Assembly: GCA_030390025.1 (NCBI GenBank)
Contig: CM059431.1
Coordinates: 105,340,001-105,404,000, forward strand
Source of the DNA: Squalus acanthias
Taxonomy: Eukaryota
Length of the DNA stretch: 64,000 nt
Direction of reading: 5' to 3'
How positions within the stretch are numbered: position 1 is the stretch's first letter; every line of letters starts with the position of its first letter. A program made the position numbers and the translations under genes. Of this stretch, positions 1 to 50,509 are shown in pieces. The notes below the pieces were generated by a model, which was not told the origin of the DNA, did not search any database, and saw only the letters and a list, made by a program, of their open reading frames with translations.

Positions 1-929
1 TTCAAAGAAGTCTTCCTGGCAAGGAAAAATGTCTATTCGACCTACAGGCGCGGTCGGGGCTTACTGACCGTGGCGATAAGTATGGTCTTCGTCTCTTCTC
101 ATCTCATCTCATCTCTTCTCGGGCCTTTGGTTCCGATGCCGGTTACCAACACAGGTCTTCGTGACACGACACGAGGTAGATCCGAACGGATCACAAAGTT
201 CAACAGTCTTTTAAAAAAAGACACCAGGCAAACAGGAACAAGACGGCGAGTCAAGAACACAGGAGCAGCCACGAGGATGAACACCAGCAAGATAAGAGAA
301 AGATGGACGGCTGGAGCCTGCAATTATAGTACAAAATCTTCCGTTTCCCGCCCAACCTCAATGTCCCTTCCTTTTGTTAGGGTTTGGCGCTCAAATGTCT
401 TGTATAGGTGATCTCCGGTTTTAATGGGTTTCGGGGCTACTCGTAAATGTCTGAGTACCTGTTAATATTTCTCCCATTGTTTAATCGGTCGGTATTCTCC
501 CTGGAGGGGTTTTGGGGCCTCCAAGTGTTTTCTGTAACTACCCGCTAACGGCTCTCTCATCGTAGAGTCGTTGGGATTTTACATATTAATGTCTTTGGAT
601 GGGTTCTTGATTACTGGGTACAATAGCCTTTATTCGTACCTGGGAGACCGATTCCAGTATCTATGTGTATACTGCAAACCCAAGATGTCTCGTGTATTAT
701 CTTCGATGTGCTGAATCTTAATCGATCTTGCACAAATGTTTATTGGAACGCCATCTTGTCTGCCTGTCGAAAAGTCTAGAATGTTCCGCCACGAGGTGCG
801 GCGGCCATTTTACAAGCTGCTTGTGTCCACTTTGAAACCTGACAGCATTCTGCTGAAATAAAAGCTGTTTGAACGAAACTATGTGTTTTCTCCTTATTAA
901 TAAAATCACGATATATTGCGAATTCTACA
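1..929 (-). repeat. 3' LTR (partial; about 747 bp more expected left of the window)
   Basis: Identical to 11080-12008 except at 206/11285 and 908/11987; begins TGTAGAATTC on minus directly after a purine tract. Confidence 0.95.
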
Positions 930-940
930 GTCCCTCCTGT
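930..940 (-). promoter_or_regulatory. Polypurine tract (plus-strand primer site)
   Basis: Minus ACAGGAGGGAC abuts the TG of the 3' LTR. Confidence 0.8.
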
Positions 941-1376
941 TGATGCGAATAACTCCGCTTATCGTATCAAAAATATTGTGGTGAGCAATATTATCTCGAT
1001 TTTCTCCGAATCCAGAAAATTAATCCCATAACTTAAACTAGCTAGGGTCTTTGTGTCATCCTTATTTCCCAAGAAAATTACATTTTATAGCACCGTAGGC
1101 ATTATTTGCCTTTAAACTTACACCACTTGTTTTCCTTCCAGGCGTAACCAGGCCGATGCCTCTCGTATCACCTGTATATTCATCTTTTATTCAGGGAAAG
1201 GAAAAACAAAACCCAAAACCAAACAATCATTTTTAACTACAACACCATTACCAAAATAATCAACACCAACTCTTAAAACATGTCAAGTTCCAAACGTATT
1301 TACAGTCTTTGAAAATCATGATCGAGTACAAACTTTCGCGGCGCACGTGGCGAGCGGGAGTGACGGCATTTTCCGA

Positions 1377-3729
1377 TCACACGGTGCTTTCATCGTGCAC
1401 GCGCACATAACGTTCTCGCCACTCTCCCGTGTTTTCATGCTTGGTGAGGCGTTTGTCTCTTTTACAATGTACGACCAATAGGTATACTACAATAAAAACT
1501 TGGCATACTACTAAAATGTGGGAGGCTATCCTGATCCATGAAGGTACTTCAATGTTGGTGAACAGATTCCACCACGGTGGAATTACTATATCCAGAATGT
1601 CTGTCCCTCTTTCGACAGTTTTCTGCTCTAATGTGTAAAAATGTTTCTGTGACACCGCGACGGCTTTTAAAAGCTTGGTGAGGTGTTCAGGGAGAGGGGG
1701 AATGAGGTATCCGAAATGCGCGACGAATCGCTGCAAGTCGGTGAAATTCTCTTTTACGGTGAGATGAACCGTGGATGGTTCAGGGATTGGGACAATTCGC
1801 TGTTGTGCTACTTGAACTTCCGCCCGGGGTTTGAAACAGAAACTGCTGTCACTCACCGGACACCGGCTACGGTTTCCATGCTGGTAGTGTCGCGCTGCAG
1901 TGGTAACACAATATGTTCCACCCCCGATGTATGCTACCTGCGGAGGCACATGATCTTGTGCCATTGCCTCCATGGTGCAATTCATGGACTTGGCGCCAGC
2001 CGTTCTGAACCCGCACTGTGGTGTTAAAAAGGCATTCAAGTGCTGGGGACACAGTATTATGTGTGCTCCCCTGCCACGACAACCAGAGAGATCTGTACCT
2101 GTCATCGTTTGCTCCCAGCGGATGACGTAGGGTGGAACCGCTGCATAGCGAATGTGGGCTCCCCCCTGAATGACACCAATGTTCTCTACCCGATACACCG
2201 GGGCGGGCTTTGCTGTGTCGCCCAAAACTGGCATACGTAGTACTATACCCATGATAGTATGGTTTGATCGTCCGCAGTCCACGGGGACTGGGTATGCTTC
2301 TGAAGCTAGCCTGAGCTGGCACGGGCTTAATGCGTTCTGAAAAGGGTGGAGCGCCCGCAGGTGTTTGTTACTTATCCAGGACGGGACCAAACCTTGTTTT
2401 AAATCCTCCAAATTACTGCGGCCCTCGCCCAGTAACCACGCCCCGTAAAGCACGCACACCTCGTTCTGCGCAGCTTGATCGGATGCATTCCGATCTTCCC
2501 TAATCAGGGCATTTACCGTCTTTGCATGTTTCTCTAACTCTGCTATAATTTCCTTTAAATGGAGAGTCATGGCTTGGTCCTCGTGTAAACCCGACCCTAC
2601 CACTTTATTCTCATCTGTTAGAATGTCTTTTAATTGCGTCTTTAAACCATTAATCTGGGTCTGCAGATCCACACTGTCTAGAGCGTTGACCACAGATGTA
2701 CCTGTGTTGAAAGCAGTGAACGCGTCGTTCACTACACCCCTTCTTTGCCTCCCTACTTGATCCAAAACTTCCTGTGGTGCGGTGTACAAACTTGTTTTTA
2801 TCAATTTCCGCGAAATCGAATTCGTAAAATTGTCTGAACATCTTGGTCAACAGGACCTGATACAACTGTTCCGTCTTTTTGGGGCACCACTCTGGTAACC
2901 GTACCTCGGTGAGATTTAAAATCACCGAGGCCACCGCGTAGTGTACCCCCTGGAATAGTATCTGGTCTGTGGGGACCAGTACCAAACCATTCCCGGGTCC
3001 CTTACTAGTTTTAGGGCACCCTTCCTCTTCAGCTGGAACCACCGGAATCGTGGGCGGGGCTTTGCGTGGGCGCGTAATGAGTTCAGTGGCATTTACCGGG
3101 ATCGAAGAGTATGGGGCTCCGCACCCCCTGGTGCTCGCATCCCACCTCATCCCCTGTCCGTTATCCTGCCATTGATTAATGAAGAATATGGATATGCCTT
3201 TGGGGCAAGGGTACTTTGACCCCCACATGCATACATAAATTCCCTCATCCGGTTCCCACCATTTGTCCCAACAGACTCTCACTTGTCCGTTTGTCCCCGT
3301 AATTGTCCGATGGGTATTATTACCCAGTCGTTCCCACTCGACCGAAGAGTTCCTCATGTTTTTGCTCAGCTTTCGCAGCCACCACCATCGGCTCAATGGG
3401 ACATTCCCACTACAAGTCAAACAAATCCGTTTGCCGACGGTGACGCTGATCCTGGGTGCGATGATCCTTACTTTGGGGCACAGTAAAGAAGTCTCTTGGT
3501 AGGCAAACCCCGATGTGCTGGAATACTCCGTTGAGTTCGTTCCCAGCCATCCTGGCCACCTTCCCTTGTGGAAATAGGTGGTGGTCTCCTCAGCCTCCCG
3601 TCTTCCGGTCCCATCCACCGCGATGGGGGCCGTGTCCCCGGAGCATCCAAACACCACGACATCCTTGGTGCGGCCTCGATAGGCCAATCCACATCCGATT
3701 GCCGCGAGCAATACTAGAATTCGTTCCAT
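1377..3729 (-). CDS. env: Envelope glycoprotein, F-type class I fusogen with N-terminal Ig-like domain; ~783 aa after repairing one frameshift near 2795-2799
   Basis: Signal peptide MERILVLLAAIGCGLA (ATG 3729); furin site RQRR (2739-2750) followed by fusion-peptide-like GVVNDAFTAFNTGTSVVNA and heptads LQTQINGLKTQLKDIL; Cys-rich region; TM IASHILVVCQVFIVVYLLVV; short tail. ORFs 2650-3888 and 1377-2804 join if one A is removed from an A5 run. Confidence 0.88.
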
Positions 3730-3742
3730 CCTTCCTTGGTTC

Positions 3743-3765
3743 CTGTGATCAGATAGAATGAGGTA
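3743..3765 (-). promoter_or_regulatory. Putative env splice acceptor
   Basis: Minus CCTCATTCTATCTGATCACAG|GAACCAAGGAAGG-ATG: pyrimidine-rich tract and CAG 13 nt before the env ATG. Confidence 0.6.
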
Positions 3766-4026
3766 GCCAGCCTCGCAAGAGTCTCTGGCTTTTGTGAAGG
3801 GTGAGCGGGTCCCCTGACCTCGCCTCACGTAAACTTCAATGTTCGCTGAATAAACTTTAACTAAACCTATCTCTAAAGCTCCCATCATTTTATCATTTTC
3901 TGTTAAAATTAAACTACAAACTTAACCTTATTTAAAACTATAAACTTATAACCTTAAACTATAAATTTAGAAACCTATCCTAAACTTATTACTGTACAGC
4001 GCCGCCCGTTCCCAGGGCGGCCCCTT

Positions 4027-7000
4027 TTAAATTCTGAGAAGGCTGCTGCGAGCTCTTCCCGACGGTGGGAGGGCTCTGACCTTTTCCTCTGATCTGCCGC
4101 AGCCTGTTGCTGCACTGACCCCTTCCTCTGGGCTGCCGCAGCCTGTAGCTGCTGCTATGGGACCGGGCTGTATCTGGGCTGCCTTAACCTTGAATCTACG
4201 CCTTGGGACAGTCTGGGGCCATACCCACATCTTCCTGGGCTGGGGTTCTCTACTTGACCTACGGGGAGTTGTCGGGGGCAGGAATCCCATGACCGACGGA
4301 CCGGGTTCCGAGACTTCCATCGGGACGACCTGTGGTTCCACCACAGTCGCTGACTCCGCCTCCGCTGACTCCGCCTCCCTAACCTCGGGACTTGCAGCTT
4401 GTGGCTCCGCCCTGCTTGGCCCAGCAGGCGGCCCTTCACTCGCGATCCCTGCCTCCCCCGAGGGTGGGACGTTCAAAGCGGGCGGCTCGGGCTCGGAGGT
4501 TCTCACCGTCACTCCCTGTGTTCCCACAGCGGCTGGCTCCGCCTCCCCTAGCTCCTCCCTCCTGTGTTCGGGACCTGCAGCTTGTGGCTCCGCCCTGTGC
4601 GGATCTCCATCTGCAGTCCGTGTCCTCCCTATACCTAAAATGGGGACGCCCCTTACGTTCCCCAAAACCCACTCGCCTTCATCACTATCCTCATCTGACT
4701 CCCATCCCCACAAAAATGCTTCGTGATCTTCCAGGATGTCTCCTCCCCTGATGCAAGCTGCTTTGCCTGCCTGTGTGCCTTGTGGTCCGACCTGGGGCTG
4801 CGCTCCCCCACTCGCGGGGTTTACCCCTGTGGTTTTCCCTTGCGCACCTGGCTTGTACAGTTTGCACTGGTTTACATGGAACCACTTAGTGCGCCGAGGT
4901 ACCTTTACGGCGTATACCATGGGACTCGCCTTATCTACAATGTTGTAGGGTCCCATATACAGTGGTTCCAGACTCCCTACTCTGGCGTAGTTTCTGACCA
5001 TGACCTGGTCTCCTACTTCCCACTCCCGCGTTTTGCGGGGTTCCAGCAACAGGCGATTGCCCTGATGCTGCCTTCCCATGTTCCCAGCCGCCTGCTCATA
5101 AACCTGCTTCAGGCGCTCCAAGAGGGTCTGGGCGAACTTGTCCCTGCTTATCTCTTGGAGCTGACCCTCAGTGAGCACCGGCGCTAGCACATGGGTGGGG
5201 GTTCGCATGAGCCTCCCAGTCATCACCTCGTGCGGGGAGTACCCCGTACTTTTTGACTGACTGGCCCGGACCCCCATGAGGACTAAAGGCAGAACTTCCG
5301 CCCATTTTTGGGGCGAGTTCCTAGTCTCTTTCCTCAATTTCTCCTTCAGGGTCCGGTTCATGCGTTCAACAATCCCGGATGACTGGGGATTGTGTGCTAC
5401 GTGCCACTTCCCTTCAATGCCCAAAAGCATGAGGGTGTTCTGCATCACCTGGCCGGTGAAATGACTCCCTTGGTCTGACTCCACAAAACGGGGAAGTCCC
5501 CACCGCGAGAACACTTCCCGGACCAAGATTTTTGCAGTACCCAGTGCCGTAGCTGTTCGACAGGGGAAGGCTTCCACCCATTTGGAAAACACATCCACCA
5601 AGACGAGGCAGTATTTATAACCTCCCTGGGTGGTAGGCAGGGGCCCTATGTAGTCGATCTGTATCGACTGCCATGGTCCCTCTACCCTTCTTACGTGTCC
5701 CATGGGCACTTTCCTTTTCTGGGGGTCTGGGTTGTTTGCAGCGCACACAAGACAGTTTGCACAGAACTCGCGGACTTGTTCCCTGAGCCCTGGCCACCAT
5801 CCCGCTTGCTCTACCCGTTGCCAGGTAACCTCGGGCCCGGGGTGCCCTGCCCCTGGTCCCTCGTGAGCCAACTGGAGGAATTCCCTCCTGTGCTGCTGCG
5901 GCACAACCCACTGCTCCTCGCGGAACAGCATGCCTTCCTTAACTGAGAGGGTTGCCGTACTGTACGGACCCTCTACCTGCTTCCCCTCAACAATGGTTTT
6001 TAGGACTGCTTTTAGGGCGGGATCCTGGGTTTGGACGGTCTTAAGGTCCAGGGGCAATGCTACCCTGGAGTTCCCGGGATTCCCGTCCCTGCCTTGGATC
6101 GCTGCCATGGGTCTGGTCCTATAGGGGTCCCAGAAAATGCCGTTGCGGGCACCTTCCCTGGCTAGCGCATCCGCCTGTTGGTTGCCCTCCCCACGGGGCT
6201 CTGTGGAGGAGTGAGCTTTCACCTTATGGATGAAAATCTCCCCTTCCTCCCCTACTGCTGCTAGGATCTTTTCCAGCAAGGGCTTCACCGTTAAAGGTTG
6301 CCCGTCCGCGGAGGTGTATCCACGGCGGGACCAAATGGCCAGGTATTCCGTACACGAATTGCATGTGAACATACTGTCCGAGCAAATCGTGTATGGGGTT
6401 GGGAAAATGTCTGGGTGGGTAACAACGTACACCACGGCAGACAGCTCAGCCTGCTGCGCGCTCATGGTGCTAGGGAGCTTGATCGCCAGGGCAAGGTTTG
6501 CCGCAGGGTCATAAACTCCACACCCTGTGAGTCGTTCGCCAGCAGATACTGTGCTAGACCCATCAACATAAATCTCGCGCCCAGTGGGATGTATCCCGGC
6601 CCGCAAACCTATGTTGACGTCCCACACCCCTTCCACCGAACATCGGTGGGCTGTACCGGGGTATACCAAATTGGCCGCAAGCCTGGGCTCGCAAAGACCT
6701 TTTACTCTAAGATCCATCTGGGAAAGAAGAAGGGTCCAGCGCGCAATACGCCGCTTACGATCCCATCTTTAATCCTCCCATCTAGAAGCATCTTAGTTGG
6801 CTTGTGATGGGTGAGGAGAGTGATGGGAGAGAGCCCTGTGAAGATCGCTGATCTTTTCACAGCCCAATGCGTGGCTAAAAGGTGCCTTTCGCAATTGGAG
6901 AAACTTCTCTCCACATCCGTTAACACCCTGGATGAATAGACAACCGGCCTCAGCTTGCCGTGACGCTCTTGGAGCAGCACAGCGCTCAAGCTGTCCCCGC

Positions 7001-8519
7001 TGGCAGCTACCTCCAGGAAAAACTCCTTCCCCCCATCTATGGCCCCTAAGGCTGGCGCGGTCTGCAGATCCCTTTTTAACTTCTCGAAGGCTGCTTGGCA
7101 GCCCTCGTCCCAAGACCACTCCACTCCCTTATGGAGGAGTCGGAGGAGCGGCGCCGCTGTGGCCGCATAGTCTTCGATAAAATCCCTGCAGTAACCGGTC
7201 AGTCCCAAGAAGGACCTCACACCCCTTATGTTGTTGGGAATCGGTAACTCTTGCACCGACTCCCTCCTAGCTTTGTCTATGGCTCTTTCCCCAGCGCGAA
7301 TGGTCAGTCCCAGGAATTTTACTTCCTGCTGACCGATACGTGCTTTCTTAGGATTTATTTTAAAACCCTTTCTCGCTAGCAGCTCCAATAACTCGTCCAG
7401 CAGTGGTCCATGCTCCTCCCTTGAATCCGTAAATAGGAGCAAATCATCCACGTACTGCACTATCTGATTGGGCTGACTAAACTCCTTTAAACTTCCTGCC
7501 ATACACTGATGGAAAATACTGGGGCTATTGTGGAAACCCTGTGGCAGAAATTTCCATGTGTACTGTTGTCCTTTGAAAGTAAAGGCAAACTTGTACTGGT
7601 CCTCTCGCCGCAGCGGGATAGACCAAAAACCGTTCGAGATATCCAGCACCGTGAACGTGGTCGCGGACGCTGGGATACTCCCTATTAGGTCAGCAACTGC
7701 TGCTACCGTGGGCGCGCAGGCGGGAATGTTACTGTTAAGGACTCTGTAGTCCACCGTGGCCCTCCACGAATTATCCGGCTTCCTAACCGGCCATAATGGG
7801 GAGTTCACGTGTGTGGCTATCGGCCTCAACACGCCCTGTTGCACCAAGGAGGACATTGCTGTCTCCATATCGGGTTCTGCTTCTTTGGGGAAGTTATACT
7901 GCTTTTGGGGCCGGGTCATGGGGTCCCCATCTACGCTGACCTCAAACCCGGTAACCCTCCCACAATCGTGCTTGTGGGTGGCAAACGCGTGCATGTTATC
8001 TGACACGTACGTTTGCATGTCCGTTGGGACATCTGCGACCATAAGCCCGAGGTCGTAGCCTCCGGATGGCTGCATGGTACACAGGACCCCTGTTTCTTCC
8101 TCCCCCGGAATTACCACTACCTCGCCTTTTTCACTCTTAGCCCCCCAGAGACAGTGATTTCTGAGGTCCACGAGGATCCCGTGTCCTGATAGGAGATCGG
8201 ACCCGAGGATACCTCTTCCACCCCCCTCCTGCCATTCCATCAGTATGCACTTCCACTTGATGTGAAGTGCTCCCAAACGAATGGATAGCGGAAGGGAGAA
8301 CGCGCCAGCCTGTTCTTTTCCCGTGAACCCCGCTAGTGTGAATGGGACCTTGGTAGATAGCGGCGAGTCAAAAGGGCTATCTGTATGAATTACGGTGCAA
8401 GAAGCTCCCGTGTCCAACAAATAACTACCCTTCTGTTTCTCTACCTCCATCTCCACCAAAGGTCGCTTCCACGCATCATAGCTGAGCGGACACAGGTAGA
8501 CGGGCTGCGCGGGCTCTAG
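4027..8519 (-). CDS. pol: Pol polyprotein: protease, reverse transcriptase, degenerate RNase H (tether), active RNase H, integrase, C-terminal extension; one frameshift near 6750
   Basis: LLDTGAS; LDISNGFW, LPQGFHNSP, YVDDLL; tether FFLEVAAS...LLTHH; RNase H IYVDGS/AQQAEL/CSDS/HKVKAH/GNQQAD; IN HEGPGAGH...CLVC, IQIDYIGP, ESDQGSHF, GIVERMN, GPY. ORFs 6702-8459 and 4027-6717 join as ...GIVS/RIARWTLLLSQMD. Confidence 0.95.
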
Positions 8520-8522
8520 TCA
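8516..8522 (-). promoter_or_regulatory. gag stop codon in TGA-CTAG readthrough context, in frame with pol
   Basis: Minus CAA TGA CTA GAG CCC; the same frame stays open into the protease (8519 to 8459 is 60 nt). Confidence 0.75.
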
Positions 8523-10328
8523 TTGGGTACTATTAGACGGTCCTGCGGCACCTACGGGGCCGGTAGCAACCGCCACCTTTCCATGTGCACTCAATAATTT
8601 GCGCATGGCTCCCAACACTGATTCGAGGTCGTCGGGAGGGGTGGGTGCACTAGCTTCCCTAGCAGGGACAGGCGTCTGGGCTCGGGCTGCGGGAATTTTA
8701 TCCCTGGAATCCTTCCAAGGGTTCCTGCAGTTCTTGCGCCAGTGCCCTGTCTTCCCACACCCGTAACAAGCATTACTTGCCTGCGGGGCGCGATTACCCT
8801 CCTGATGCCACTCCCTTTGATACGGGGCTGCGGGTCGTACCTCATGTACTTTTCCCTTAAGGGGACGTGTTCCCATACCCCTTATATTGCGATATCCTAA
8901 CGTGAGTCGATTCAATACCGACTCTTCCGTAATGTTGGGGTCATTGGGATCAAACCATGCTTTTGCCTGCTCTCTGACGGCTGGTAAACTGTTGGCTACT
9001 ATGCACCTAAGCCAATGATTTAAACCGGCGCCGTCCATATCGTCGCGCTCTAGCGCACCTAGACAGCTGCGCTGATATACTGGCCACAGCCTGTCGGCAA
9101 AAACCTTCAGGGGTTCTCCCTCCATCTGCACTGTCTGTCCCACTCTAGCAAACGGACCTTCATCGTCCGCCCCCAACACTTCCAGGACCTCATTCTTTAA
9201 TGCCTCATAAGTCTTGGTTCCCCTCTTGCTCTCGTTCGAGAGACACTGAAGGATTGAACTGCCTAACGAAAATAACAGCATTTTTGCTGTTTCCCCATCA
9301 TCGCAGCCGTTGATAGCTGCGGTTTGCTCAATTTCTCTGAAATGTACGGAAGGGTCGTCTAACTCGGTCAGCTTCCGTACGTGATTTATCATAACTCTCA
9401 GCTGGTGTGAGCTGTGAGGCAACACAAGCTGGCCGAGGAGATCCCCTGGTTCCTCCCCACCGTTTCTGTTTGGGCCCCTTTTTATACCCGTTACTGGATA
9501 CAACGGTCCCTTTTCCACTTCTTTCTCAATGGGCTCTTTTGTTTCTTCTACTACTTCCTCCCTTACCCAGGTTTCCGAATAGCTGGGTGGCGCGGAGGGC
9601 GCAGTGGCTAATACTTCCTCTGCTTTACTTGGTGGGGACTTCTGAAACTCCTCTTTTACTAGCGGCTGGGGTGCTGACGGACTGATAAGGCACACCATGC
9701 CGTGCGCTTTGTTCACGGCCTTTTTGAGGTGCTCTATCTCTTTTTGGCAGGCGCTATGATCGGCCCCCTGAAACTTATCCTCAAGGGCCAACTTATATGC
9801 CGCCCTAACCCCCGTTAAGCTCTCTTCCTGAGTTCTTATCTGGGCAGCTTGGCGGGCACATCGTTCCTTTAGTCTGCCCTCACTTAACTTTGCCTCAGTG
9901 ACCTGACACTCGAGGTAATCTATCCTTGTTTTATGGTGACTGGAGATTTCCTGGCTTTCTTGGTGCAACGCACTTAAATTCCTAATGAGCAATTCCCCTC
10001 CAGAGACCTTCTCATCCATTTCTCCCTCTAAATGACTGATTCGAGCTGTTAGCGCTGTAATGACCTGGTTTGAAATCTGGACCTGCCTTTTGTAACACAT
10101 TAGCCAGACTGCTTTCTCGATTGTCTTTTTATGTTCCTTACTATCTGTCCACCTTTCGGCTGCCTCTAGTGGACTCTTATCCGCTAACAATTCACTTATC
10201 CATTTCTTAGTTAGATTAACCTTTCCGAACACATAATCTGCTATCTTTTCCTGCATAACATTTCGTACAGTCACACCAAAGTCTAACACACTACCCTCTC
10301 GCTGCCAGTGTCCTGCCGCGGTCGCCAT
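8520..10328 (-). CDS. gag: Gag polyprotein, 602 aa from the first ATG (alternative ATG at 10256)
   Basis: Intact ORF; N-terminal coiled-coil-like region; PSAP (9669-9680) and PSAPPSY (9579-9599); MHR-like QMEGEPLKVFADRL; zinc knuckle CYGCGKTGHWRKNC (8727-8768). Confidence 0.92.
   Translation of the reverse strand: MATAAGHWQREGSVLDFGVTVRNVMQEKIADYVFGKVNLTKKWISELLADKSPLEAAERWTDSKEHKKTIEKAVWLMCYKRQVQISNQVITALTARISHLEGEMDEKVSGGELLIRNLSALHQESQEISSHHKTRIDYLECQVTEAKLSEGRLKERCARQAAQIRTQEESLTGVRAAYKLALEDKFQGADHSACQKEIEHLKKAVNKAHGMVCLISPSAPQPLVKEEFQKSPPSKAEEVLATAPSAPPSYSETWVREEVVEETKEPIEKEVEKGPLYPVTGIKRGPNRNGGEEPGDLLGQLVLPHSSHQLRVMINHVRKLTELDDPSVHFREIEQTAAINGCDDGETAKMLLFSLGSSILQCLSNESKRGTKTYEALKNEVLEVLGADDEGPFARVGQTVQMEGEPLKVFADRLWPVYQRSCLGALERDDMDGAGLNHWLRCIVANSLPAVREQAKAWFDPNDPNITEESVLNRLTLGYRNIRGMGTRPLKGKVHEVRPAAPYQREWHQEGNRAPQASNACYGCGKTGHWRKNCRNPWKDSRDKIPAARAQTPVPAREASAPTPPDDLESVLGAMRKLLSAHGKVAVATGPVGAAGPSNSTQ
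10310..10327 (-). promoter_or_regulatory. Primer binding site, tRNA-Arg(TCG) type
   Basis: Minus TGGCGACCGCGGCAGGAC, complementary to GTCCTGCCGCGGTCG-CCA, the 3' end of a vertebrate tRNA-Arg-TCG as I recall it; follows the LTR end CCCTTACA after a 5-nt GAAAA spacer. Confidence 0.85.
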
Positions 10329-10577
10329 TTTCTGTAAGGGTTTGCGAGCGTGTCTCTCAGCCTGTGAGATTCGTGTGGCTCTGTGCAGCCTGTATGTCAG
10401 TGCGGGTTTAGGCCTTGTTGCCTGTTCTGGTCTCCAGCCAGTCTGGGAACACTAGACACACCTGTGAGTGGTTCGAATCACTCGCCCTTACGGTTCTAGA
10501 CACTGGACTTAGATGCGAGAGCAGTAATGGAGATGAAACTCATGTAGACTCGGTTGAATGGTACGAAATGGAAAATC

Positions 10578-10583
10578 TTTATT
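10578..10583 (-). terminator. Putative LTR polyadenylation signal AATAAA
   Basis: The only AATAAA I found downstream of the TATA-like box, ~245 nt from the LTR end; two others lie upstream at 11708 and 11818. Confidence 0.5.
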
Positions 10584-11401
10584 GCATAATGTTTAAGATT
10601 ACGAAATACATGTCATAAGCACAGATTAATGACAGTACAATCTTACACGCAGTTATGTAACTAATTCTAGGGAAACGAGGAACGAACGACACACCGTAAA
10701 TGGGGGCACACATTACAATTATCCTTAGTACTTAAACCCTCCCCTATCAATATCTGTCCTAGCTAGATTCGTAGGATTCGAGACTCATGCTCACCACTCG
10801 TGATAACTCGGAGAAATTCCGAATAGCTGATCGGATGTTTTCACCGCAGCACCCACGTGTCGATCAGGGGGTCTCCTGGCCCCACTTGTTTACTTGCTTC
10901 TGCTCCGGCTAGCAGGCTGGAACGTCTGTTGTTATGAAGATCTGTGTTTGTGGGTTTCACGTACCAGTCAACACTTAAGAGAATAATCTCTCGGTGTTCA
11001 TCATGAGGATCTGCCCTGATGGGTTTCACAGACCAGTCAATACCTCAAAGAAGAATCTTCCGGGGTCCGTTCTTTAAAGTTCAAAGAAGTCTTCCTGGCA
11101 AGGAAAAATGTCTATTCGACCTACAGGCGCGGTCGGGGCTTACTGACCGTGGCGATAAGTATGGTCTTCGTCTCTTCTCATCTCATCTCATCTCTTCTCG
11201 GGCCTTTGGTTCCGATGCCGGTTACCAACACAGGTCTTCGTGACACGACACGAGGTAGATCCGAACGGATCACAAAGTTCAACAATCTTTTAAAAAAAGA
11301 CACCAGGCAAACAGGAACAAGACGGCGAGTCAAGAACACAGGAGCAGCCACGAGGATGAACACCAGCAAGATAAGAGAAAGATGGACGGCTGGAGCCTGC
11401 A

Positions 11402-11435
11402 ATTATAGTACAAAATCTTCCGTTTCCCGCCCAAC
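11402..11435 (-). promoter_or_regulatory. Putative LTR core promoter (GGGCGG box plus TATAAT)
   Basis: Minus TTGGGCGGGAAACGG...TACTATAATT followed by a pyrimidine-rich stretch; same motif at 323-356. Confidence 0.45.
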
Positions 11436-12008
11436 CTCAATGTCCCTTCCTTTTGTTAGGGTTTGGCGCTCAAATGTCTTGTATAGGTGATCTCCGGTTT
11501 TAATGGGTTTCGGGGCTACTCGTAAATGTCTGAGTACCTGTTAATATTTCTCCCATTGTTTAATCGGTCGGTATTCTCCCTGGAGGGGTTTTGGGGCCTC
11601 CAAGTGTTTTCTGTAACTACCCGCTAACGGCTCTCTCATCGTAGAGTCGTTGGGATTTTACATATTAATGTCTTTGGATGGGTTCTTGATTACTGGGTAC
11701 AATAGCCTTTATTCGTACCTGGGAGACCGATTCCAGTATCTATGTGTATACTGCAAACCCAAGATGTCTCGTGTATTATCTTCGATGTGCTGAATCTTAA
11801 TCGATCTTGCACAAATGTTTATTGGAACGCCATCTTGTCTGCCTGTCGAAAAGTCTAGAATGTTCCGCCACGAGGTGCGGCGGCCATTTTACAAGCTGCT
11901 TGTGTCCACTTTGAAACCTGACAGCATTCTGCTGAAATAAAAGCTGTTTGAACGAAACTATGTGTTTTCTCCTTATTAATAAAATCGCGATATATTGCGA
12001 ATTCTACA

Positions 12009-13570
12009 CTACGTAGTTTGCTTTGTTTAGATTTAAGACCCTAGTTTCAGATTTAACTAAATCACTGTCAAACTCAATGTAAAATTCTATCATATTATGT
12101 TCACTCTTCCCGAAAGGCCCCTTTACTACAAGGTTATTAATGAACCCTTTCTCATTTCACAATACTAGATCTAAAATAGCCTGTTCCCTAGTTGGTTTCT
12201 CAACATACTGATCTAGAAAACTATCTTGTATACATTCCATGAATTCGTCCTCCACACTATTACTGCAAATTTGGTTTGCCCAGTCTATATGTAGATTAAA
12301 GTCCCCCATGATTACTGTATTACCCTTGTTACATGCGCCTCTAATTTCCTGATTTATACTCTGCCCTACATTACAACTACTGTTTGGGGGCCTATAAACA
12401 ACTCCCACCAATGTTTTCTGCCCTTTGCTGTTTCTTAGCTCCACCCAAACTGATTCTACTTCTTGATTTTTGGAGCTAAGATCCTTTCTCTCTACTGTCT
12501 TTATCCCATTCTTCATTATCAGGGCTACCCCTCCTCCTTTTCCATTTTGCCTATCTCTTCTAAAAGTTAAGTATCCTGGAATATTTAGTTCCCAACCTTG
12601 GCCACTTTACAACCACGTCTCCGTAATGGCTATTAGATCACACCTGTTAATTTCCATCTGCGCTACTAATTCATCTAATTTTTTGCGAATGCTTCGCACA
12701 TTCAGATATAGTGACTTTAGCTTTGACTTATTTCCTTTTTTACTCTCTTTCTCCCTTCCTGACCCACTCTGCTTATTTTTACCCAAAACTCTACTCTGCT
12801 CTAGAGCCTTAACATTTCTCTTGCTGCTTTTAAATTTGCTTTTTCCCGAATCCTCCCACCCCCCTTCATTAGTTTAAAGCCCTGTCTATTGCCCTCGTGT
12901 TATTCGGTTCACCAGGGCACTGGTCCCAGCCCGGTTTAAGTGGAGCCTGTCCCAACAGAACAGCTCCCTCTTTCCCCAGTACTGGTGCCAGTGCCCCATG
13001 AACTGAAACCCCTTCCTCCCACACCACTCTTTGAGCCACGTATTTAAACCTCTAATCTGTTTGCCCCTATGCCAATTTGCACTTGGCTCAGGTAACAATC
13101 CAGAGATTATTACCTTTGAGGTTATGCTTTTTAATTTGGATCCGAGCTCCTCAAACTCCCTCAGTAGAACCTCATTCCTAGTTCTACCTATGTCGTTGGT
13201 TCCTACATGGACCATGACAACTGGATCCTCCCCCTCCCACTCCAAGTTCTTCTCCAGCCGCGAGGAGATATCCTTAACCCTGGCAGGCAACACAACCTTC
13301 GGGACTCCCGATCGTGGCTGCAGAGAACAGTATCTATCCCCCTGACTATACTGTCGCCTACCACTACCACATTCCTTTTTACTCCTCCCACTTGAATGGC
13401 CTCCTGTACCATGATGCCGTGGTCAGTTTGCCCATTCTCCCTGCAGTCCTTGTTCTCATTCACACAGGCTCCCACTGCCTCCGCTCCCGCTCAGGTCTGC
13501 GCTGTGTCCTGGGCCTTCTCCGGTGCTCCCTTTAAGCTGCTACTCCCGCTGCCTTCGCTCCCACTCAGGT
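12009..13570 (-). mobile_element. CR1-clade LINE 5' part (ORF1 SGNH esterase remnant plus ORF2 AP endonuclease), interrupted by the provirus
   Basis: VVGDSIVRG, VHVGTNDIG, DRLHLNRAG (12886-13475, frameshifted); GVVYRPPN, IMGDFNL, PTREQAILDLVL (12157-12516); homology continues to the LTR edge (NKANYV). Confidence 0.9.
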
Positions 13571-48380: not shown

Positions 48381-50509
48381 TTATCTAAATTCTTTAACAC
48401 ATATATACAACAGTACCCTCTTTACAGTGCCTTTTCCTAATCTACTGCTTCTACATAGTGTCTCCCCAATGGCTGCAGCAGGGCTGGTGGAAGGCTGCTG
48501 AGTGTCAGTGCCAGAAACTACAGATGGCCTTGCAGGATGCCCTCGACCAACTCTGGGCCTGGGAGGCCCGGCTGTAGACTGCACCACCTCAGCATGGGTG
48601 GCGGCAGTCTGGCCTGGCTGGATGACAGGCAGCGACAAGTGCAATGGCGGAGTGGCAGTGGTGGGATCAGGAATGCTGTCATCCTGAGAGAGGTCAGCAG
48701 GTTCCTGCTCCATTGACCCACTCCCACTCCCCCGGGGCAGCACCTCAGCATCCCTACCAATCTGCTGCAGCACAGATTGGTGGCCTGCTGTGACACCATG
48801 AGATCCCGGTGGACTATGGTGGGCCCAGCGACGATGACAGTAGTCAGATCTTTCGTGGCATCCAGTTGAGACTGCATGAGAGCAGTCTGAGATTCAATGC
48901 CACCAACCATTGACTGCATTACAGCACTAAGACGTTGCGGGGCATCCAGCTGAGACTGCATGAGAGCAGTCTGAGACTCGATGGCAGCAACCATTGTCTG
49001 CATTACAGCACTAAGACATTGTGGGGCATCCAGCTGAGACTGCATGAGAGCAGTCTGAGATTCAATGCCACCAACCATTGACTGCATTACAGCACTAAGA
49101 CATTGCGGGGCATCCAGCTGAGACTGCATGAGAGCAGTCTGAGACTCGATGGCAGCAACCATTGTCTGCATTACAGCACTAAGATGTTGCGTGGCTTCCG
49201 CCTGTGCTGCAATGGAAGCTGCCACATCACCCATGACACATGTCATGAGGTTTGGATCCGCACGGTCTCTCTGGGCGTCCAGCATTCTCTGCAGAGTGGA
49301 AATGATGGACTCCATGGTGTGCACAGAGTCTTGTGCAATGTTGGAGACGGACTCCTCCACGCTCCTTACCATTGCCAAGAGGCTCTCGGGCACCCTTGCC
49401 ATTGCACCTATCATCTCGGAGTGCATGCCCATCACCCTTCTTGTGAACGCCTCCCCATCGTGGTCGTCATCTGAGTCGTGTGCAGCAGAACTCGCCCTCC
49501 GGTGAGCTGGCTCCCAAGCTACCCTTTCCCCTTGGCCTTGCTGCAGCCCGCTCGTCCCTGGTGTATCACCCAATGCAGACCCCTCTACTAAACTTGCCTC
49601 TAAAGATCGCCGAGTGCCAGGATCTGAGCTGTTGCCTGCGGGTGAGAGATGCAGTGACGTGGTGCTTTGCTCCTCCTCCTCTTCTCCTTCCTCACTCTCA
49701 GTGGGAGGCTCAGGGACAGGCTGGTCAGCTGGTTGCTGATTCTCTGAAAGCCACAAGACCCGCGTTAAGGTGAGGGCAGGGGGGCAGGAATGGAGCAAGG
49801 AATGCAGACAGTATCAGGAGCTGGAAATTGAGAAAGGATTGTGGTGTGAGGGGGAAGTGGGATGAGAGAAGGAGAGGGGATTAACATACGGTTGTTGCCC
49901 TCAAGGGGGTCGACGTTGCCAATGGCCATGGCGCCCACCACCTGCTGCCCAATGAGTCGCAGCACTCGCTCCTCAAGGTCTGAGAGCTGCTGGAGCTGCG
50001 CATCACCCCCGCCTGTTCTCTGCTGCTCCCTCCTATTGGGGGCCATCTTGGCCTGCAAGAGAAACGAATGTGTGTGAGTCAGAGCCCAGCTATGTGTTTG
50101 GGAGATATGCCTGCTGTAGTTGAATAGCTGTGATTGTAGGCACGGCATGAGATGTGGATGTGAGTTTGAGTGGGTGCAGATGCTTGGTGAGTGAGTGGTG
50201 GGGGTGTGGTGGATTGTGCAGTGTGTACAGACTGAGGTTCGGATGCTGGTAGGACCTGTTGAAGCACATACTCACCCTGACCACCCGAGTGAGGTCGTTG
50301 AATTACTTCCGTCAGTGTGTCAGGCTGCGTTCCACCATACTACTGGCTGAGACCTCCTGGGCCACTTCCTTCCACATTGCCCTGAAGACCTGGGGCAATG
50401 GCTTCCTTCCAGTGTCCGGGAATAGCACTGCCCTCCTTTGCTCCCCTCCCGTGACCAATGCCTCGTCAATGAAATGACGAGCTCTCTGCTTGGGAGTGGG
50501 AGCAGCCAT
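48381..50509 (-). pseudogene. Harbinger Myb/SANT-like DNA-binding protein gene, three exons
   Basis: RARHF...RRAVLF...MWKEVAQEV..R..RK.FNDL (with stops); GT-AG introns 50275-50053 and 49889-49744 keep the frame; RTGGG motif in exon 2. Confidence 0.8.
48857..49192 (-). repeat. 4 x 84-bp coding tandem repeat (28 aa, alternating A/B units)
   Basis: GGCATCCAG recurs at 48857, 48941, 49025 and 49109. Confidence 0.92.

Follow-up and report, generated by a model that had tools for sequence, protein, structure and literature searches.

Readthrough of an in-frame stop codon is an established way for retroviruses to make Gag-Pol, even where the stop is UGA. In gammaretroviruses and epsilonretroviruses (Moloney murine leukemia virus, MoMLV, with UAG and a pseudoknot; walleye dermal sarcoma virus, WDSV), the stop lies between nucleocapsid and protease. 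A 2026 review gives retroviral junction stops as UAG-G types and three UGA contexts without CUA, and regards the cis-elements outside gammaretroviruses as unclear (PMC13517186; this and the other papers are cited from excerpts). UGA was reported as UGAAGA in SSSV, UGACGA in ZFERV and UGAAGU in RMEV, while the snakehead retrovirus has UAGGGC (PMC13517186). XtERV-S also has a UGA junction, for which TGA suppression was proposed, with no context named in the excerpts (PMC8278194). We analyzed a stretch of 64,000 nucleotides from Squalus acanthias (GenBank assembly GCA_030390025.1, contig CM059431.1, positions 105,340,001 to 105,404,000 of the forward strand), called the window below, which carries an endogenous retrovirus (ERV). 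Its gag gene ends in TGA followed directly by CTAG, and the same frame continues into pol. This TGA is very probably a programmed leaky stop, predicted from the sequence to give Gag-Pol by readthrough. These retroviruses of fish and frogs resemble this element in their aquatic hosts and presumed readthrough, but none of them has UGA-CUA. The gammaretroviruses and epsilonretroviruses share the location and the purpose of the stop; they differ in having UAG-G rather than UGA-CUAG, and a compact H-type pseudoknot 8 nt past the stop in the gammaretroviral type rather than a predicted long hairpin (the folding tools used here do not model pseudoknots).

The UGA-CUA context is placed by the excerpts of the review, among animal viruses, only in alphaviruses and a triatovirus (PMC13517186). 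In Sindbis virus, UGA-CUA with an extended stem-loop controls a downstream polymerase, as is proposed here; Venezuelan equine encephalitis virus (VEEV) has UGA-CGG. Alphavirus stimulators consist of a spacer of 8–12 nt, a bulged stem of 10–12 bp and a loop of 101–154 nt (PMC3159437), and they raise readthrough 3.2- to 9.5-fold (PMC13517186). The fold predicted here is similar, with a bulged basal stem that closes a long loop after an 8-nt spacer (compare PMC3159437, PMC13517186). The alphavirus structures measure 126 and 177 nt, whereas the present one is 211 nt, is a prediction, and belongs to a retroviral gag-pol junction.

Vertebrate genes such as AQP4 and LDHB also show UGA-CUAG readthrough, and such genes add short extensions to their proteins. 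The identical heptamer UGACUAG is found in MDH1 and OPRL1, and its readthrough in human genes is at least about 1.3% (PMC13517186). The extension at the present junction would differ in being the whole of Pol.

The Stop Codon between gag and pol

The junction is located on the minus strand, as are all provirus features below. It reads CAA TGA CTA G at nt 8525–8516, with CAA at 8525–8523, TGA at 8522–8520 and CTAG at 8519–8516. The gag frame is open from 10451 to 8523, which is 643 codons from stop to stop and 602 codons from the first Met at 10328; the gag open reading frame (ORF) that ends in TGA thus occupies 8520–10328. Past the TGA, the frame stays open for 605 codons (8519–6702) and encodes protease, reverse transcriptase (RT) and tether, with Pfam matches to RVP, RVT_1 and RT_RNaseH. 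The TGA is the sole stop of the gag/pol frame within 8201–8900, and the remaining two frames carry 9 and 13 stops. The earlier sequence-only reading, which left the strand unstated, had described the same gag end and an open frame into the protease, and both are borne out.

The TGA lies 68 codons after a single CCHC zinc knuckle (8724–8771) and 36 codons before the protease DTG (codon 36 of the pol frame, 8414–8406). The knuckle motif is visible, and its Pfam zf-CCHC match (E 0.0038, 17.7 bits) is below the curated cut-off of 20.8. Eight viral control loci also have an upstream CCHC ORF, with the protease motif 25–39 codons past TAG. The contrast drawn earlier with the UAG of gammaretroviruses stands in part. 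TGA-CTAG does differ from the TAG-G of control loci L011–L017 and L020, but UGA junctions had already been reported in SSSV, ZFERV, RMEV and XtERV-S, in other contexts.

CTAG is a rare sequel to TGA. Across both strands of the 64-kb window it directly follows 2 of 2350 TGA triplets; among the 144 on the minus strand of the provirus it follows a single one, the gag-end site itself. The codon pair CTA plus G occurs 14 times among 3025 pairs in the provirus ORFs, and CTAG is absent after all four other ORF ends. The motif class is that of type II readthrough (PMC13517186), in which UGA is followed by CUA or CGG; the in-frame ORF of 605 codons after the present stop contains both protease and RT.

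If the TGA were an ordinary terminator, Pol would come from a separate spliced mRNA or by frameshifting. Foamy viruses make Pol from a separate spliced mRNA, and the element has some affinity in that direction: a foamy virus gives the best solved-structure match of its integrase, and in the tree its RT is on the class III side. The junction, however, argues against this route. Gag and pol share one frame, no slippery heptamer is present in 8371–8700, and the only acceptor-like site found in a crude scan (8671) is located before the stop. The pol frame reaches its first Met only at codon 24, inside the protease; Pol thus requires residues that precede any start codon of its own. Since residue 5 of human immunodeficiency virus (HIV) protease aligns with pol-frame codon 16, a start at this Met would lose the N-terminal strand of the protease. 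With CTAG missing from the other ORF ends, ordinary termination appears improbable.

Divergent Copies at the Junction

Twenty runs, which represent seven coded organisms in ten studies, contain parts of the junction region; none of the 20 is listed as an RNA source, which says nothing about expression. Contigs of four runs, from four coded organisms, were aligned; contigs drop rare variants, and the results concern 40 of 199 substitutions and 24 of 95 loose ends of these runs. Contig depth at 8474–8555 exceeds that of both flanking bins in all four. Among the loose ends considered, those at 8523 occur in three of the four runs (X1, X7, X11) and those at 8488 also in three (X7, X9, X11), which indicates that the match of divergent copies begins at the stop and ends at about +31, with differences on either side. 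The stretch common to the provirus and the divergent contigs is 8489–8522. As judged by eye, the upstream differences of these contigs are synonymous only in the frame ending at TGA, and the loose letters make sense in frame only with a match that extends from the T of TGA to +31. The 40 substitutions include none in 8394–8585, and no long contig among those considered spans the stop. The depth peak and the loose-end boundaries suggest that the TGA may be conserved in divergent copies.

Several points weigh against a leaky stop. The junctions of relatives vary, with TAG-GGC in control locus L010, TAG-GGA in L001 and TGA-CAGG in XtERV-S2. In 10 of 24 lokiretrovirus sequences, the annotation gives a single gag-pol ORF (PMC7947760), and the present copy has a later frame break in pol. 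Rare sense variants are possible, and the TGA of the divergent contigs is deduced from the alignment boundaries rather than read.

Some of these points would fit a nonsense lesion in a once-continuous gag-pol ORF, as the fused lokiretrovirus ORFs suggest and as do the frame breaks of the same copy, in pol near 6702–6768 and in env near 2650–2846. Such breaks may be lesions or assembly errors, and relatives P0021 and P0023 are continuous where the provirus pol breaks frame. The TGA itself is a different matter. CTAG comes next after only 1 of the 216 sense codons in gag/pol that are one substitution from TGA, and the site is the canonical junction. The long terminal repeats (LTRs) are identical at 927 of 929 aligned bases, showing a young insertion, and the divergent contigs start matching at the stop. 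Searching for fused, longer Gag relatives gave none, which is weak evidence by the tool's own statement. A lesion is therefore very unlikely. The junction signal is intact, yet the later breaks leave the copy, as assembled, without full Pol. The proposal that the stop is a signal and not a lesion, with Pol predicted to arise by programmed UGA readthrough, was supported by all the computational tests.

A Predicted Hairpin Downstream of the Stop

The downstream 150 nt, whose folding had been proposed as a check, gave an unremarkable z of −0.61; this length is too short for the 225-nt fold. When nine lengths were scanned, z was −3.3, −4.7 and −7.4 at 200, 250 and 300 nt. The sequence from +1 to +225 folds as one hairpin (z −5.29, none of 200 shuffles below), and z becomes −5.77 without the first 8 nt, again with 0 of 200 shuffles; the minimum free energy (MFE) and centroid structures agree. 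The predicted hairpin is 211 nt and begins after an 8-nt spacer from the stop. Its basal stem has 9 bp, pairing +9..+17 with +210..+219, with a 1-nt 3′ bulge. The predicted 5′ arm spans 8491–8511 (+9 to +29), inside the stretch common to the divergent contigs, and the 3′ arm in the MFE/centroid fold spans 8301–8325 (+195 to +219). The pair probability is above 0.9 at +14–17, +19, +21–22 and +24–29. Folds of 225 nt at all nine control junctions have z from −2.0 to +1.7.

Readthrough could also depend on UGA-CUAG alone, the hairpin being a by-product of structured GC-rich RNA or having another role such as packaging. This is quite possible. By z the hairpin window ranks fifth of 84 provirus windows, several others reaching −3 to −5.7. 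Six of the variants considered fall within the hairpin: three keep the pair, one is unpaired, two in the apical part break pairs, and none is compensatory. The length was chosen after the nine-length scan, and folds of 150 nt or less are no better than shuffles. For UGACUA, moreover, structure is needed only conditionally according to the review (PMC13517186). Set against this are the bulged 9-bp helix that starts exactly 8 nt after the stop, the location of its 5′ arm in the conserved stretch, and the nine control junctions without such a fold. We lean towards the hairpin being a real stimulator of readthrough, as modeled here, and regard it as a good lead, not a result.

Two other folds were seen in the provirus. 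A second predicted hairpin lies at +224 to +297 (8220–8296), with pair probabilities above 0.9 and one of the variants considered breaking a pair. The strongest of the 84 folding windows is 3896–4115 (z −10.1), where GC hairpins at the pol end give way to perfect AU-rich hairpins immediately ahead of env; this stretch may correspond to the splice acceptor region of env.

A simple model can be proposed for the junction. Most ribosomes would terminate at UGA and release Gag. CUAG would weaken termination and give a basal leakiness, so that a near-cognate tRNA could insert an amino acid at UGA, and translation would go on in frame into protease-RT. The residue inserted at UGA would be Trp, Arg or Cys. 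The long hairpin, with its 9-bp basal stem 8 nt past the stop and at the mRNA entry channel, would probably raise readthrough as in Sindbis and VEE viruses. Gag-Pol would then be made at a set ratio of a few per cent.

The Motif at Other Retroviral Junctions

We found no description of UGA-CUAG in a retrovirus in the literature searched, which lacked most subscription papers and Repbase notes. The motif is nevertheless present in published sequences. By eye, 7 of the 24 lokiretrovirus consensus sequences in the supplement of PMC7947760 have TGA-CTA(G/A) at the end of gag. The in-frame sequel to TGA is CTAG in four of them (Ofa, Pyo, Sau, Cne) and CTAA in three (Bsp, Dcl, Lro); in the Bsp consensus a further shift of frame precedes the protease. 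At the matching place, Tfu has X-L-S. The supplement text at hand gave no junction for Ape, Aro, Bpe, Lch, Lca and Rca, the TGACTAG of Lch being out of frame. Possible stem-loops after the lokiretrovirus stops were seen by eye. The words readthrough, stop codon and frameshift do not appear in the main text (PMC7947760), and the review makes no mention of lokiretroviruses (PMC13517186). In a bullfrog class III ERV the junction reads TGA CTA G and a frame break follows later, and the XtERV-S2 junction is TGA CAG G (PMC8278194, supplement).

The control loci offered further junction stops. In L021 (3843–4000), an epsilon-like element, a TAG-GAC junction has a local fold with z −3.3 over 100–150 nt, a candidate stimulator. 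Retroviral contigs L001 (3112, TAG-GGA) and L003 (1040, TGA-GGT), from metagenome collections, also carry in-frame junction stops.

Relationships of the Element

Four env homologues were found, all of them sawshark or skate proteins with 61–78% identity, and the family therefore lives in cartilaginous fish. A lokiretrovirus survey found none of three chondrichthyan genomes positive (PMC7947760).

The element was first read as a lokiretrovirus because its env resembles F-type fusion proteins. This membership is rejected on the RT. A quick RT tree had 80 rows, 13 near-duplicate loci having been dropped beforehand, and a careful tree used a 30-row subset; the lokiretrovirus rows in the RT tree are stand-ins chosen by motif. 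In the careful tree a 100/95 branch sets the element apart from the loki-motif stand-ins and the Gypsy-like rows. A joint clade of the element's RT group with the loki-motif rows is rejected with p-AU 0.0025, the group having been named after the first tree. The element has in common with lokiretroviruses a dual RNase H, which is shared by all retroviruses and not diagnostic, and an apparently F-type env with an RXKR-like site. Differences are the RT motif (LPQGFHNSP versus CPFGYANSP), the lack of a long protease-RT insert, and the CCHC knuckle of the element.

The nearest named virus by RT is L010, with 46% identity over 212 aa. We take L010 to be the snakehead retrovirus, whose hexamer its TAG-GGC junction matches; the gamma, foamy and beta labels of other control loci are likewise our presumption. 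Grouping of the element with L010 has an SH-aLRT of 98 in the quick tree, and 82/55 and 91/77, unstarred, in the careful tree. The integrase scores 250–261 bits with loki-motif proteins versus 135–137 bits with L010, and the tether is likewise closer to the loki-motif proteins. Among nine reference loci compared, the integrase of L001 is most like that of the element.

The env, a possible relative of the Mononegavirales F glycoproteins, matches the Gypsy env, Baculo_F and Fusion_gly clusters of the Atlas at 0.92–0.95 with a low recognition value, and resembles the Loki-Dcl env by eye. Pfam gave no match for env, and no similarity was found to the part of L010 compared. A single-sequence fold prediction of env had a pLDDT of 37.5 and was set aside. 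Searching viral contigs with a single protein gave no relative, and scans of metagenomes and viruses with an alignment gave 9 and 13 loci, none above 39% identity, which served as controls only. Judging from its sequence, the element is best described as a class III-side ERV that carries a loki-like integrase and env. An F-type env on an element with a non-lokiretroviral RT is seen here although in the lokiretrovirus paper such an env counts as a loki feature; a mosaic lineage, so far undescribed, may exist in cartilaginous fish.

Organization of the Provirus and the Window

The provirus spans 1–12008 in the order LTR, gag, protease, RT, tether, RNase H, integrase, env, polypurine tract, LTR, which fits Retroviridae. 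The outer part of the 5′ LTR (11080–12008) aligns with 1–929 and has TGTAG at its outer edge; its inner end is not fixed and is probably towards about 10460. The LTR may reach about 1.5 kb (10460–12008); it has AATAAA near 10583, and a clear primer-binding site was not recognized in this region. The second pol frame, past the break, encodes RNase H and integrase (4027–6768, from ORFs and domain matches), and about 270 low-complexity, partly repeated residues follow the integrase in the same frame (4027–4850). Env (1377–3921) has an RQRR furin-type site and an F-type fusion part, and is read in two frames (2650–3921 and 1377–2846). The polypurine tract, by direct reading, is at 930–942, and the 3′ LTR defined by the LTR alignment (1–929) is cut by the window edge. 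An Rfam scan of 1–12100 gave three matches, at chance level only.

Interspersed repeats, apparently of LINE/SINE type, are dense throughout 13400–64000, as is typical of a vertebrate genome. At 48518–49813 on the minus strand and 48834–49253, a 431-codon ORF contains 84-nt tandem repeats, presumably with the period of C2H2 zinc-finger arrays.

Significance of the Junction

Gag-pol readthrough was known in retroviruses, and what appears new here, from the sequence, is a UGA-CUAG signal of the alphavirus type. The site offers a concrete, testable junction signal in a young multicopy family, with a motif common to alphaviruses and vertebrate genes. It also concerns annotation, which would score TGA codons of this kind as lesions. 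For several lokiretrovirus pol genes, the published start is a downstream CTG or TTG though the frame begins at TGA-CTA (PMC7947760).

A much wider reading, which we consider doubtful, is that UGA-CUA(G/A) with a 3′ stem-loop is a widespread, unrecognized Gag-Pol switch of basal retroviruses, used by the shark-type lineage, by a frog ERV resembling ERV-S/L and by roughly one third of the published lokiretrovirus sequences. The switch might then be ancestral in the group of retroviruses plus lokiretroviruses, older than UAG-pseudoknot readthrough, frameshifting and foamy splicing, and the element would represent an undescribed lineage with a class III-type RT, a loki-type integrase and an F-type env. 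If general, the signal would bear on the origin of Gag-Pol ratio control at the base of the retroviruses.

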